Below, one piece after another: positions 4,257 through 8,058 of a stretch of DNA of 27,826 nucleotides. A model generated the notes under the pieces. The model was not told the origin of the DNA. It did no database searches and saw only the letters and a list, made by a program, of their open reading frames with translations. Position 1 is the stretch's first letter. Each line of letters starts with the position of its first letter. The DNA is from Chloroflexota bacterium (lineage in GTDB: Bacteria > Chloroflexota > Dehalococcoidia > Bin125): the NCBI GenBank assembly GCA_009837565.1, contig VXTH01000046.1, positions 1-27,826 of the forward strand. The letters run 5' to 3'. The translations under genes and the position numbers were made by a program.

Positions 4257-4616
4257 CTAGGCTCGATAGTCAATTGCGATCACGATTCCAGCCACGATCT
4301 CCTCCACCTCATCAGCCCTGAGCACGCCGACTCGCCGCATCAGCCGCTCCGTCGAAACACTTCGAACCTGCAGGAAGTCGGCCGCCGAGTCTGCCTGAAG
4401 GCCGTTCCGGTCGGTCACCGGGATCAGGAACTTGTTGAATCGCTCGGAGAAGTCAGATTGCCACGTGGTGAGCGGAACGATGATGCGAACCAGTGACGTA
4501 TCGAAGGCAGGGGAACTGACTACAACGGCGGGGCGATCGCGCTGCAACTCAGCCCCGACAGCACGCGGCAACCGAACCAGCCAAACCTCGCCCCGGGTTG
4601 GAGTCTCGTCGCTCAA
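4257..4616 (-). CDS. mazF: PemK/MazF-family endoribonuclease toxin
   Basis: RGEVWLV...G.ELQRDRPAVVVS...IVPLTT...DFLQVRSVSTERL...G.L signature; 119 aa; TTG start with GGAG upstream. Confidence 0.93.
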   Translation of the reverse strand: MSDETPTRGEVWLVRLPRAVGAELQRDRPAVVVSSPAFDTSLVRIIVPLTTWQSDFSERFNKFLIPVTDRNGLQADSAADFLQVRSVSTERLMRRVGVLRADEVEEIVAGIVIAIDYRA

Positions 4617-4631
4617 TGAGAACTCCGCCGT

Positions 4632-5786
4632 CTACTCGGTTTCGTCGCTGGGGAGTTCATCCCAGGCAGCGGTCTCGACGGGGTCGACCACCACTGCGGC
4701 GCCCTGCAGCATTCGGTGTCGCTCCTCGAGAGATTGGCGGGCCAACTCTCTCAGCGATGCACGCCGTTCGCGACCAGTGCTCCTTTGCTGAGATATGCCA
4801 GGGATATAGCTCTCGGCATCCTCCGTCGTAATCATGCTCTCTGCCAATGCCCGCAAGACAAGCCGTCGAAACAGGGCCGGCGCCTCGCTCGACTGGTAGG
4901 CATGTGGCTCCGTCCGATGCCAACCTTGAGTTCGGAACTGGATGTTGAGTGAGCGATAGAGATCTTCTCCGATGATGTCGAGATCACGTGCGCGCCGGAT
5001 CCAAGCCTGCATGCTGAGGCCCCAGCGGCGCTTGAGCAGGCCAAGTTCGTCGAGATCGAGCCCGCGACGGTGTGTGCCTAGCTCGCGTCGCGCAGCCTCT
5101 GCCGGAACCAGGAACGCTGCTGCGAACCGATGAGCAAATGGCTCGTCCAGCTTGGCGTCTCCCGTTTGTTCCATGATCAAATGGCCGAGTTCGTGCGCTG
5201 CATTGAAGCGCTGCCTGTCGGGAGGTACGGCAGTGTTCAACACCAGGATGGGACTCCGATTGGCCCAGCCGGACAGCGCATCGAATCCCCATTTTTCGTG
5301 CCAGCCAATAACGGAGCCGCCGCGTTCCTCGATCAACTCAAGGAGGCCATCAATCGGTCGATCTCCAAGTGACCAGTGCATTCGGAGCGCTGCGGCGGCG
5401 TACTCGCAGTCGTTGACGTTCTGGACCTCGATTGGACCGGGTAGGTCGTGCCAATCGCCCAGATGGAAAAGGCTTCGGAGTCGGAATTCCCCTTCCAGCT
5501 TTTGCTGCGCGATGGCGGTCAGTTGATTCTGGCGCGCCTTGCTCAGGTTCGCGTGCTTGCGAAAGGCCTCCCACCGAATCTCGATCGCCTCTTCAGTGAG
5601 CAGCGACGACGCCGTCACGTTGAGCGCCTGCGCGATGTCGGAGATCCGGGTCGGGTTCGGCTGAGCCAACCCCTTCTCGTACTTGGACAGAGCCTGCTTC
5701 GAGATAGGATGCTCCAGCTTCGCCGCCAGACCCTCCAGGGACAGCCCGGCTGCCAGCCGCGCCTGGCGCAGTCGGGTCCCCAACAT
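4632..5786 (-). CDS. XRE-family HTH fused to an ImmA/IrrE (M78) metallopeptidase, with an extra C-terminal tail of about 50 aa (384 aa total)
   Basis: ATG at 5786 with GGAGGAGG RBS; N-terminal HTH (LRQARLAAGLSLEGLA...SKYEKG); RFNAAHELGH zinc motif; AHRFAAAFLVP. The track's upstream extension to 6161 overlaps the Ubl gene and is rejected. Confidence 0.92.
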   Translation of the reverse strand: MLGTRLRQARLAAGLSLEGLAAKLEHPISKQALSKYEKGLAQPNPTRISDIAQALNVTASSLLTEEAIEIRWEAFRKHANLSKARQNQLTAIAQQKLEGEFRLRSLFHLGDWHDLPGPIEVQNVNDCEYAAAALRMHWSLGDRPIDGLLELIEERGGSVIGWHEKWGFDALSGWANRSPILVLNTAVPPDRQRFNAAHELGHLIMEQTGDAKLDEPFAHRFAAAFLVPAEAARRELGTHRRGLDLDELGLLKRRWGLSMQAWIRRARDLDIIGEDLYRSLNIQFRTQGWHRTEPHAYQSSEAPALFRRLVLRALAESMITTEDAESYIPGISQQRSTGRERRASLRELARQSLEERHRMLQGAAVVVDPVETAAWDELPSDETE

Positions 5787-6033
5787 CGGGGCGCCTCCTC
5801 CCGTCTCAAACGTAAACGCAGTGTAACGATTCGAAGGTCGTCCACCCTCAGTTGACAATTCTACGTGGGACAGGCACTCTTGTCCACAGGACAGAACGTC
5901 TCCAAAGAGGCAGTTACGGAAAGGAATGCGATCGAACTCCGAGCGCGAGGTGCCCGACCCAAGCCAATCAACGACAAGGCCGAAGGGCTCCTCCTCGGGC
6001 CCACACGCCGACTCCATCCCAAGGAGACGATCG
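5787..6033. promoter_or_regulatory. Divergent promoter region with operator-like GGACA/TGTCC boxes
   Basis: TTGACA at 5852-5857, then 17 nt, then CACTCT at 5875-5880. GGACA (5868-5872), TGTCC (5881-5885) and GGACA (5889-5893) flank this -10. A TACACT on the minus strand (5825-5820) lies upstream of the XRE gene. Confidence 0.5.
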
Positions 6034-6297
6034 ATGACTACGACACAGCGAGATGCGATCGACACGACCGACGAGGGCTTCACGCTCATCGTTGACAACA
6101 AGGAGTACTTGGTGAAGTCCGAACTGCTCACCGGACGGGAGATCATGAAGCTTGCCGACATTCCGTTCGCGGACGGGCTGATTCAGCTTCTGCCTGACGG
6201 CACCCAGGTGCTGATTGGGCTCGACGAAGCAGTCGACCTCAAGCAGGGTGACCACTTCAAGCGCCCACCCCGCTTCAAGCGGGGGATGTCCTCATGA
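6034..6297 (+). CDS. Ubiquitin-like (multi-ubiquitin-type) protein, 87 aa
   Basis: AAGGAG RBS at 6021-6026 and ATG at 6034. Pattern F.L.VDNKEY....LLTGREIM.LA...L....G....IGLDEAVDL..G..F, ending ...KRG-MSS. It is the first gene of an E2/JAB/E1 operon. Confidence 0.82.
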   Translation: MTTTQRDAIDTTDEGFTLIVDNKEYLVKSELLTGREIMKLADIPFADGLIQLLPDGTQVLIGLDEAVDLKQGDHFKRPPRFKRGMSS

Positions 6298-6680
6298 CAA
6301 TGGAGCGGCGTCTGCGGGAAGTTGAGCTACTGCGTCAGCGGTACTCGCGAGTCGAGCATGGCTCCGATCTCGATTGGTTGATGTTCAAGGACTTCCCCCT
6401 GCCTTCAGGCTGGGACCGTGGGTCTACAGACATTCTGGTACTGATCCCGCCTGGGTATCCGGAGACCCCACCTGACAACTTCTACGTGCCCAACGGACTG
6501 CGTCTCCAGTCGAACACCGTGCCCGGCAACTTCGCTGAAGGTCAGGAGGTCCTCGGTGCATCCTGGGCTCAGTTCTCCTACCACGCCGAGACCTGGACAC
6601 CGACCCACGACCTGTGGAATGGGGACACACTCGTAACGTTCATGACCGCCGTCGAGCGGCGGCTAAGAGAGGCCAACTGA
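6294..6680 (+). CDS. Prokaryotic E2/UBC-fold protein (E2 family E-like) with no cysteine
   Basis: FPLPSGW...ILVLIPPGYPETPPDNFYV...W.QFSYH...WTP...DTLVTFM.AV pattern; ATGA overlap with the Ubl stop; zero Cys in 128 aa. Confidence 0.85.
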   Translation: MTMERRLREVELLRQRYSRVEHGSDLDWLMFKDFPLPSGWDRGSTDILVLIPPGYPETPPDNFYVPNGLRLQSNTVPGNFAEGQEVLGASWAQFSYHAETWTPTHDLWNGDTLVTFMTAVERRLREAN

Positions 6681-6681
6681 A

Positions 6682-8058
6682 ATGAGTGTTCTCGTCATCG
6701 CAGACGACCTGTGGAGCAGGCTTCGGGATCATCTGCTCGCTGATCGCGAGGAACGCGCCGGCTTCCTGCTGGCCAGATCTGCCGGGCCCAGACTGATCGT
6801 TCGCGACCTCGTGTTGATTCCTGACGATCAGCTTGAACGCGGCACGGATTCCGTCTCGGTTACTCCACCGGCGCTTGTCGATGTGATGAACCGGGCCGTC
6901 CGCGAGGACATGATCATCGTCGAAGCGCACAGCCATCCACAGTCGTGGGAAACGGTGCGCTTCTCGGACTTGGACGACCAAGGCCAGCGAGAGATGGTCG
7001 TCTATCTGGCAGACGTGATGCCGGGACGAACGTACGGCGCGATCGTCGTAGGTCAGTCCGCCGTGGCAGGCAGGTTATGGCACGGTAGGCGATGGACCCC
7101 ACTCGACCACGTACTTGTGACTGGACCTCACATCGAGCTGTGGTCCGGTGACGGAAGCCCGATGACGCGGAACTCACGCGCTTCAGTACGGCACTCGGAT
7201 CGTTACGATCGTCAGGTCCGAGCGTTTGGGCAACAAGGCCAAAGCAAGATTGCCCGCTGTCGCGTGGCCGTCGTTGGAGAGGGTGGAATCGGTTCAATCG
7301 TCACGGTTCAGCTCGCCCACCTCGGCGTGCGCGATATCGCGCTGATCGACGCCGATCGCGTCGAAGAATCAAACCTCAACCGGCTCGCAGGCGCAACCCC
7401 CTCAGATGTCGGCCAATTGAAAGTCGACCTCGCTGAGGTCCAGTTCCGGCGAGTGAGTCCCGTAGCGTCCATCTGCTCAGTTCCCGAGGAGATTCGAACT
7501 GAATCAGCTCTAGAAGCTGCTCAGAGCGCAGACGTGTTGTTCGGCTGTGTCGACACAGATTCCGGTCGCCTGATTCTAAACGAGCTAGCTGTGACGCACG
7601 CCATCCCCTACATCGACTGCGGATCAGGCATCGACGCGCCTGATGGCCGCATGAGTGCTGCCGGCGGTCAAGTCGTTGTCTGGGTTCCCGGCCGACCGTG
7701 CCTCCTCTGTTGCGGTGAGATTGACCGTGCCATCGCCGCTGAAGAACTGGAGAGCGAAGATCTACGGGCATTCCGAAGGGGACGTGGCTACATCTCCGGC
7801 TCCGATACACCCGAACCATCGGTGATCTCACTGAACGGAACGGTGGCATCATTGGCAGTAACGGAGTTCATCGCGCTTCTCACTGGGTTCCGGCCGGCCA
7901 ACCACTACACCTACTACGACATGTTCAATCAGCGTGTCGGTCAGCGTCTCGTCAAGAGGAATCCGCTCTGCTTCACATGCTCCACAGAGGGGACTGGCGA
8001 CTCAGCCAACGTGAAGCGATACAGCCGAATAGCCGTGCCAATGGATCTTCCGGCTTAG
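6682..8058 (+). CDS. JAB metallopeptidase fused to a ThiF/E1-like adenylation enzyme
   Basis: N-terminal JAB domain (E..G...EAHSHP......FS..D). C-terminal E1 domain: RYDRQ, GEGGIGS, DADRVEESNLNRL, CVDTDSGR, and Zn-binding CLLC and CFTC. Confidence 0.92.
   Translation: MSVLVIADDLWSRLRDHLLADREERAGFLLARSAGPRLIVRDLVLIPDDQLERGTDSVSVTPPALVDVMNRAVREDMIIVEAHSHPQSWETVRFSDLDDQGQREMVVYLADVMPGRTYGAIVVGQSAVAGRLWHGRRWTPLDHVLVTGPHIELWSGDGSPMTRNSRASVRHSDRYDRQVRAFGQQGQSKIARCRVAVVGEGGIGSIVTVQLAHLGVRDIALIDADRVEESNLNRLAGATPSDVGQLKVDLAEVQFRRVSPVASICSVPEEIRTESALEAAQSADVLFGCVDTDSGRLILNELAVTHAIPYIDCGSGIDAPDGRMSAAGGQVVVWVPGRPCLLCCGEIDRAIAAEELESEDLRAFRRGRGYISGSDTPEPSVISLNGTVASLAVTEFIALLTGFRPANHYTYYDMFNQRVGQRLVKRNPLCFTCSTEGTGDSANVKRYSRIAVPMDLPA

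Follow-up and report, generated by a model that had tools for sequence, protein, structure and literature searches.

The window analysed here, a stretch of 27,826 nucleotides (nt) of the Chloroflexota contig VXTH01000046.1, contains a five-gene locus at positions 4257-8058 in which a regulator-toxin pair and a ubiquitination-like (Bub) operon diverge from a single spacer. The regulator joins a helix-turn-helix (HTH) domain and an M78 peptidase in one chain and is followed by a toxin of the PemK/MazF family, while the operon encodes a ubiquitin-like protein (Ubl), an E2 and a JAB-E1 protein. The balance of evidence leans towards reading the locus as a composite of two modules, each of a known kind, that meet at a single control region; the parts are all of known kinds, and what is new is that the pairing of this regulator-toxin with Bub operons recurs within one bacterial lineage. 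The gene identities, the catalytic motifs, the autonomy of the toxin-antitoxin (TA) module, the repeated and clade-specific linkage with Bub operons, and a conserved candidate operator are found in the sequences themselves; from these, co-regulation of the two arms is plausible.

Genes were called from six-frame open reading frames (ORFs) and a Pfam scan of the window, and both bore out the gene identities, the HELGH motif and the 247-bp spacer proposed in a first-pass annotation of this DNA. All five frames are intact, their starts overlap or are tightly spaced, and the catalytic motifs are all kept. The features of the locus are:

4257-4616, minus strand: PemK_toxin gene, 119 amino acids (aa), Pfam E 5.5e-20
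4632-5786, minus strand: regulator, 384 aa, with Pfam domains HTH_3 (E 3.7e-13) and Peptidase_M78 (E 1.5e-16)
4635-4754, minus strand: codons of the C-terminal tail (about residues 345-384), a putative MazE-like toxin-binding tail with an ERH helix and an acidic, Trp-containing end (…AWDE…)
5181-5195, minus strand: codons of the HELGH zinc-peptidase active site (residues 198-202); all 63 homologues keep H198, E199 and H202
5559-5564, minus strand: codons of the F75-R76 linker motif, candidate self-cleavage site, in predicted strand 70-76 between HTH and peptidase
5787-6033: divergent spacer of 247 bp between the regulator and Ubl starts
5840-5858 (palindrome 5840-5856): GTCCAC-N5-GTTGAC(AA), an imperfect palindrome and candidate operator for the HTH domain, in which GTC and TTGACAA are invariant across nine loci
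5858-5886, minus strand: sigma-70-like promoter of the regulator-toxin operon, TGGACA-17-TAGAAT, matching the consensus at 10 of 12 positions
6034-6297, plus strand: Ubl gene, Multi_ubiq, 87 aa, Pfam E 2.1e-8
6294-6680, plus strand: E2 gene, Prok-E2_E, 128 aa, Pfam E 3.3e-18
6682-8058, plus strand: E1 gene, Prok-JAB and ThiF, 458 aa, Pfam ThiF E 5.5e-41

Recurrence of the pairing and its control region

Regarding its occurrence, the locus was followed in a survey anchored on the regulator, which covered 401 Chloroflexota species genomes, four genome-collection loci and 80 metagenome loci; the four genome-collection loci are the yield of a contig scan with a single regulator protein, while the metagenome scan used an alignment. 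Flanks were fetched and scanned with hidden Markov models (HMMs) iterated from the five window proteins. In the regulator tree, all Bub-linked regulators fall into one clade of 15 rows (support 100/99), and 11 of these 15 loci are divergent from a Ubl-E2-JAB/E1 operon: ten have Ubl/E2/E1 matches in the divergent position, three lack the operon, and the locus of L003 is too short to judge, the same protein having the operon on a 2.5-Mb contig (the eleventh linked locus), where the five-gene cassette stands at 54% regulator identity. Outside this clade, none of the 24 assessable loci is linked to a Ubl operon. Therefore, the co-occurrence that the first-pass annotation had put forward as a check held in one clade, where it involves at least three E1 lineages, and failed beyond it.

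The same survey provided further observations on the neighbours of the regulator. L058, a complete Dehalococcoidia chromosome, was at first scored as having no Bub genes, until the spacer alignment revealed a Ubl-type start on a 781-aa ORF (L058:5570-7915, minus strand) that faces its regulator-PemK pair; the N-terminus of this ORF resembles the Ubl of the type B operons, the remainder has only a weak Cadherin-like match, and neither E1 nor E2 lies nearby. The ORF may code for a fusion protein with a Ubl domain, or else be a remnant. Outside the Bub-linked clade, regulator-PemK adjoins HsdM methylases, SPFH proteins or housekeeping genes: in L064, L065 and L067 (e.g., L065:9283-10845) distant pairs lie directly downstream of, and co-directional with, the HsdM gene of a type I restriction-modification system, and in L073, L077, L078 and L079 they come after two SPFH/Band_7 genes, so the module seems to have been inserted into various defence or stress operons. 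A third regulator clade consists of shorter proteins without PemK. An identical regulator protein (P0147) occurs both with and without an E1 operon.

As for the E1 proteins, those that accompany the regulator-PemK clade are spread over at least three distinct lineages of the E1 tree, all well supported, each of which has relatives using other regulators; identity between these lineages is 25-40%, against 48-96% between their regulators and that of the window. The window and L056 illustrate this point: tblastn puts their regulators at 96% identity and the tree alignment at 95%, whereas their E1s share only 30%, and homology detected by blastn is limited to 4263-5864, a block of 92% identity made up of PemK, the regulator and an adjoining 78 bp that hold the operator. 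The window and L002, instead, share exactly 4264-8223, that is the five-gene cassette, at 85% nucleotide identity with unrelated flanks, and this recurrence means that the arrangement is no chance one-off. From these blastn blocks, the regulator-toxin-operator block is one unit and the whole cassette a larger one, and the comparison implies that Bub cargo was exchanged repeatedly beside the former, which chance clustering in islands explains poorly. With its at least three Bub lineages, this regulator-toxin clade is a concrete case of cargo exchange around a fixed control module. When the window E1 was used as the query, no E1 match was found beside a regulator match in the phylum sample; the linkage was missed because the attached E1s belong to the other, 25-40% identical lineages, which were reached with the iterated HMMs.

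Other regulators stand at the related Bub operons. Among the E1 relatives that are 56-67% identical, one has a split pair of HTH (130 aa) and M78 (289 aa) genes in the divergent position, several have a sigma70_r4-like 234-aa gene and a 208-aa gene divergent from the operon with M78 genes just beyond, and one close relative has no such regulator genes; of 20 distant E1 loci of the phylum, about half are accompanied by an HTH or M78 gene, PemK being absent from all of them. In the window, the regulator is the only controller candidate in the divergent position. The pair of about 234 aa (faint Sigma70_r4_2) and about 208 aa (no family) is seen in L100:2850-4176, L102, L104 and the context of P0004, whose Bub operons are 63-67% identical to that of the window, and it is probably a sigma-factor variant of CapH/CapP control. 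L002 possesses, in addition to the five-gene cassette and adjoining it, a second locus (L002:1645-5334) that repeats the same design with other parts: a fused, RmrA-like XRE-M78 protein of 399 aa and a 205-aa gene diverge from a two-domain Multi_ubiq protein (196 aa) and a DUF6791-ThiF protein (390 aa). The 205-aa protein has no Pfam or PADLOC match, and may be an undescribed toxin.

The control region between the two arms was examined in an alignment of nine upstream regions, taken from loci with or without Bub genes whose regulators are 54-96% identical; their sole invariant block is GTC…TTGACAA, located about 70 bp before the regulator start. The palindrome to which it belongs is perfect in L003 and L060, and its conservation points to an operator that the regulator may bind. 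In the window's own genome the palindrome is unique at zero mismatches, and matches with one mismatch are near the control count; a wider regulon, considered for this genome, was ruled out on these grounds. The sequence TGGACA-17-TAGAAT is the sole promoter-like match in 4100-8400, and the palindrome coincides in part with its -10 element and predicted start site, an arrangement that fits autorepression. The TTGACA within the palindrome also faces the Ubl operon, in the manner of a -35 element; in the related loci, it lies about 80 bp ahead of the Ubl start codon, and because their spacers are of only 143-160 bp, the Ubl promoter must overlap the operator region there. The window spacer is about 100 bp longer than these, and the leader of L002 is similarly long; no structured RNA or riboswitch was detected in the long leader, which had no Rfam match and a folding z of -0.9 against shuffled sequences.

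The two arms and their genomic setting

The regulator is 384 aa long and starts at MLGTRL, preceded by the Shine-Dalgarno sequence GGAGGAGG; a 509-aa version (4632-6161), produced by mechanical ORF calling, was rejected since the homologues have 384 aa and begin at MLGTRL. In the PADLOC scan it matched RmrA over its full length (E 2e-53), compared with E 3e-12 for capP and 4e-8 for capH. An AlphaFold2 model built from 63 homologues (predicted local distance difference test, pLDDT, 86; predicted template modelling score, pTM, 0.79) begins with an HTH (residues 1-62), from which a strand at 70-76 and a helical linker lead to the peptidase; a helical domain comes next, and order is poor in the tail, from about residue 330 onwards. 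With Foldseek, the best matches of the peptidase part were CapP (7t5t), IrrE (3dti) and PprI bound to single-stranded DNA (ssDNA; 8sln), and those of the HTH part DdrO, ImmR and SinR, so that the assignment to the HTH plus M78 type made in the first-pass annotation is confirmed; the structural alignment with CapP/IrrE spans only about 160-170 columns.

The active site is conserved: besides the HELGH residues, E215 is invariant in the 63 homologues and is likely the third zinc ligand, as judged from its conservation. No Cys follows HELGH, thus the cysteine switch of the CapP/VapB52 type is absent; the only Cys of the protein, C126, falls outside the invariant or nearly invariant columns. Nor is a GAF domain evident, the model being all-helical past the peptidase domain. 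The linker motif reads W72-x-A-[YF]75-R76-K77, with W72 in 62 of the 63 homologues, [YF]75 and R76 in all 63, and K77 in 62; F75-R76 of the window corresponds to the "FR motif" F75-R76 of VapB52, and by this analogy the regulator may be cleaved at that point. Finally, pLDDT is low from about residue 330, a region in which R356 is invariant and W375 occurs in 60/63 homologues. All PemK-linked homologues end in the ERH helix and an acidic/aromatic tail, and the shorter homologues without PemK lack it and end soon after …RALAEDLIS…; this co-variation of tail and PemK speaks for a MazE-like role in toxin binding without proving it.

PemK finds its best solved relative in MazF9 of Mycobacterium tuberculosis (E 3.5e-13), with residues 7-115 aligned and the conserved RPAVVVS stretch included; no PADLOC model, and hence no RmrT model, matched it. 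Its start is 15 nt past the regulator stop, a distance that leaves no room for a mazE gene, and no ORF, thus no separate antitoxin gene of the MazE/AbrB or ribbon-helix-helix type, occurs between the two. In 34 of the 35 loci of the two PemK-linked clades, at regulator identities down to about 37%, PemK comes directly after the regulator, and the single exception (L063) is a locus that ends at a contig edge; this constancy makes regulator and PemK an evolutionary unit. The pair is moreover autonomous: it is kept as a unit throughout Chloroflexota, in most cases away from any Ubl operon. Taken together, the left arm is very probably a TA pair of the RosmerTA/VapBC52 kind.

On the other side of the spacer, the Ubl is a single-domain, BubA-like precursor that ends in …FKRG-MSS, and this G-MSS ending implies processing; its start at 6034 is preceded by the Shine-Dalgarno sequence AAGGAG, and a 123-aa version from the in-frame ATG at 5926 was rejected, because this position is a TAG in L002. 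The E2 contains no Cys and has Citrobacter BubB (9eae_C) as its best solved relative (E 1.4e-5); its S95-x-H97 and D61 fall opposite the WSRH and LDMFYV stretches of BubB, which are taken to hold the catalytic S333/H335 and D299 (PMC11601596). Ubl and E2 are separate, overlapping genes in the window and are fused in the relative L104. The E1 is closest, among solved structures, to Citrobacter BubCD (9ea4, E 2.3e-35, residues 4-407), and the alignment identifies HSH…SDLD as the JAB motif, NLNR as the site of the adenylation Arg, and the Tyr of RGYISG as the crossover-loop Tyr Y370. A search of the window's own genome, 66% complete, did not find DUF6527/BubE (PF20137), and no BubE gene follows E1 in the window or in eight related contexts. 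Judging from these motifs, the right arm is very likely a Type I-like Bub (6E) operon with predicted oxyester-type chemistry. In two related loci (L057:5835-7330 and L108:2568-4071) the E1 is split into two ORFs beside an otherwise intact regulator-PemK pair, suggesting quicker decay of the Bub arm than of the TA arm.

The source genome is a metagenome-assembled one, and the DNA of the window is present in sponge metagenome runs, as indicated by a sequence-run search. This general search listed sponge, marine and coral-reef metagenome runs and runs of two organisms, mostly flagged DNA; no RNA run carrying the locus was found in it, and no dedicated RNA search was made. The window is a defence island, with a HerA-like ATPase, a TPR-CHAT protease, McrB/McrC-like genes, and a T4 coupling protein with a Replic_Relax gene. 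The TPR-CHAT protease (8998-12432, minus strand, 1144 aa) converges on the E1 gene and has a weak NCBIfam match to Csx29, and neither a gasdermin nor a CRISPR partner for it occurs in the window. At 17236-24847, the T4 coupling protein (TrwB/TraG-like) and Replic_Relax lie in a segment rich in GC (about 0.69) and are followed by McrB-like AAA_5 and McrC; the island may be mobilisable. Between the E1 and TPR-CHAT genes, a 98-aa ORF at 8510-8806 (minus strand), probably what is left of a helicase, matches UvrD_C weakly, and the homology of window and L002 detected by blastn stops at 8223, just short of it. Lastly, 1.35 kb of raised GC content (0.63-0.65) at 2906-4256 separates the HerA-like gene from PemK; its ORFs 3154-3774 and 2880-3386 have no Pfam match, and this stretch may be non-coding, degraded or novel.

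Proposed mechanism and competing explanations

In the proposed mechanism, the regulator would bind GTCCAC-N5-GTTGAC at 5840-5858 and repress both arms, holding the place that split CapH/CapP or sigma-type regulators have at sister Bub operons, and its disordered, acidic C-terminal tail would probably neutralise the MazF9-like PemK; a single chain is thus predicted to do the work of repressor, protease and antitoxin. By analogy with CapP and VapB52, the peptidase would be activated by a signal of stress or infection, perhaps ssDNA, and would then cut its own chain at [FY]75-R76, removing the HTH. This cleavage would de-repress both operons and destabilise the antitoxin, so that Ubl conjugation would be induced and PemK would cleave RNA. 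The DNA binding, self-cleavage, neutralisation by the tail and co-regulation that enter this scheme, together with an anti-phage role, are what we infer from the comparisons above.

The steps do not share the same likelihood. Shared control of the two arms is considered somewhat probable, and the two-tier response to a single event is a reasonable hypothesis to which a low probability is assigned. Equally doubtful is an extension in which the regulator acts as an integrating node: one self-cleavage would de-repress Bub and release MazF, with interdependent outputs (e.g., the arrest caused by MazF buying time for Ubl conjugation), and the lineage would be a portable controller that captures successive Bub operons. 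If true, this would provide a natural example of a TA module that switches the transcription of a ubiquitin-like immune pathway.

Several points weigh against shared control and the mechanism built on it. The operator is inside the TA-module homology block and is equally conserved in loci devoid of Bub, and it may serve autoregulation only. In the window, TTGACA is 182 bp away from the Ubl start with no good -10 element at 17-18 nt, and the Ubl operon may have its own promoter; the case for co-regulation is weakest in the window and in L002, with their long leaders, neither of which has a good, suitably spaced -10 element. Coupling also appears dispensable, because two species genomes of one genus, L061 (RidA facing regulator-PemK) and L062 (RidA-E1-E2-Ubl facing regulator-PemK), differ only by the Ubl operon, with the TA module intact in both. 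With respect to the trigger, it may not be ssDNA, given that the regulator is devoid of the GAF domain and cysteine switch of CapP/VapB52; besides, the toxin of VapB52 binds to the N-terminal domain and not to a C-terminal tail (PMC13273310), and phage defence by Bub operons is still to be demonstrated (PMC13373217).

It is possible, albeit with distinctly lower probability than shared control, that the arms are independent, with XRE-M78/PemK as a self-regulating TA or abortive-infection module, Bub under its own control, and their adjacency due to defence-island clustering and joint transfer. This explanation agrees with the location of the operator within the TA block, with the setting of the window, an island that hosts HerA, TPR-CHAT, McrBC and a mobilisation unit, and with the distribution of the pair, which is without a Ubl operon in most genomes, is never linked to one among the 24 loci outside the clade, and also stands beside HsdM or SPFH genes. 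The Ubl operon behaves as an indel between L061 and L062, and one ancestral juxtaposition followed by losses could fit the regulator tree. Given the occurrence of the pair without a Ubl operon and the difference between L061 and L062, the two arms do not form an obligate unit, and the single circuit of the first-pass annotation is not sustained in the form proposed. However, independence would require a repeated and specific re-association, because at least three E1 lineages were joined, always in divergent orientation with a spacer of 140-250 bp; at sister Bub operons that position is almost always taken by a regulator, and the window offers no other candidate for it, while the short spacers leave no space for a separate Ubl promoter.

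Two further explanations concern the role of PemK and the state of the cassette. PemK could be an addiction gene that stabilises a mobile cassette, rather than a second line of defence, with the regulator acting as a fused CapH-CapP controller of Bub; the five-gene block shared exactly by the window and L002 between different flanks, the T4 coupling protein and Replic_Relax gene of the window, and the classical role of TA modules in stabilising mobile DNA (Makarova 2009, PMC2701414) are in line with this idea, but the TA pair is older, more widespread and persists without Bub, and systems of the RosmerTA and VapBC52 type themselves give phage resistance, hence it is regarded as improbable. It is very improbable that the cassette is decaying or inactive in the window genome and merely carried along; the split E1s of its relatives in L057 and L108 and the UvrD_C fragment downstream would suit decay, and against it stand the five intact frames with their overlapping or tight starts and conserved catalytic motifs.

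As for the significance of two modules joined at one control region, the locus bears on the role and induction of Bub operons as a compact natural cassette of 3.8 kb whose candidate controller would double as antitoxin. It touches on the use of TA modules as switches for neighbouring immune operons, on the activation of an M78 peptidase without GAF domain or cysteine switch, and on a possible succession of Ubl conjugation and arrest by an RNase.

Comparison with known systems

The combination of parts was thought to be undescribed in the first-pass annotation, an opinion that the literature corrects in large part. Fusions of Xre and COG2856 associated with toxins were predicted in 2009 to form a more complex kind of TA circuit, one with a possible part in regulating further genes (PMC2701414); the frequent partners of COG2856 in that list are PIN and RelE, and MazF is not among them (PMC2701414). 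CapH/CapP, sometimes with a sigma factor, are associated with 6e systems, and fused CapH-CapP proteins are on record, 15 of them with CBASS and one, upstream of a DISARM system of Nocardia wallacei, beside a vapC-like gene (Lau 2022, 10.1101/2022.04.27.489752). CapH/CapP are linked to 168 of 544 Bub operons, or 31% (Ye 2024, PMC11601596), and self-cleavage of VapB52 has been proposed as well. In the literature searched, no MazF-linked member of the HTH-M78 antitoxin family was found, nor a lineage with such a TA module systematically joined to Bub operons, nor a test of one protein in both the regulator and the antitoxin role.

Regarding the left arm, the closest parallel in design is VapBC52 (Rv2514c/Rv2515c) of M. 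tuberculosis, in which an XRE-type HTH and an IrrE/CapP-like HEXXH peptidase occur in one antitoxin chain beside an RNase toxin, and the F75-R76 motif is present; VapB52 is proposed to cleave itself at F75-R76 on ssDNA, freeing VapC52 (PMC13273310). A 393-aa HTH-domain protein of known structure (PDB 9vzy_A), which may be VapB52, matches the window regulator at E 0.0019. The differences are that the VapBC52 toxin is PIN/VapC and not MazF, its toxin-binding region is N-terminal, its cysteine-switch loop (C229) is missing in the window regulator, and no divergent Ubl operon has been described for it. Likewise, RosmerTA combines HTH and ImmA-protease antitoxins, of which RmrA matches the window regulator over its full length, with interchangeable toxins, and it was validated as phage defence (Millman 2022, as related in PMC10440598); in that account these systems appear as two-gene units and not as controllers of a neighbouring operon. 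The toxin itself is most like that of MazEF9 of M. tuberculosis, from which the window differs by having no MazE gene, the antitoxin function being presumably in the regulator tail.

As for the control of the operon, CapH and CapP offer the same disposition, in which an HTH repressor and an M78 peptidase are encoded ahead of a defence operon and in divergent orientation to it, and CapP is the best structural match; the window regulator differs by the lack of the GAF domain with an ssDNA groove and of the cysteine switch, by its toxin-linked C-terminal tail, and by a far better score as RmrA. CapK/CapS, DNA-damage-sensing regulators, control Bub and other operons and were co-opted with a VapC toxin as VapKSC (PMC13373217), so that one regulator family serves both Bub control and a TA system, as proposed here; yet, their chemistry is of the kinase/STAS kind, and the two roles reside in separate loci. 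Finally, the right arm resembles the Type I Bub operon of Citrobacter (BubAB-BubCD-BubE) in its JAB-E1, which lacks the catalytic Cys but has the crossover-loop Tyr, in its Ser/His/Asp E2 and in a Ubl presumably processed at Gly, and differs from it by the unfused Ubl and E2 and by BubE, which was not found. In conclusion, because the individual parts are already known, the locus refines the current pictures of these systems and overturns none of them.

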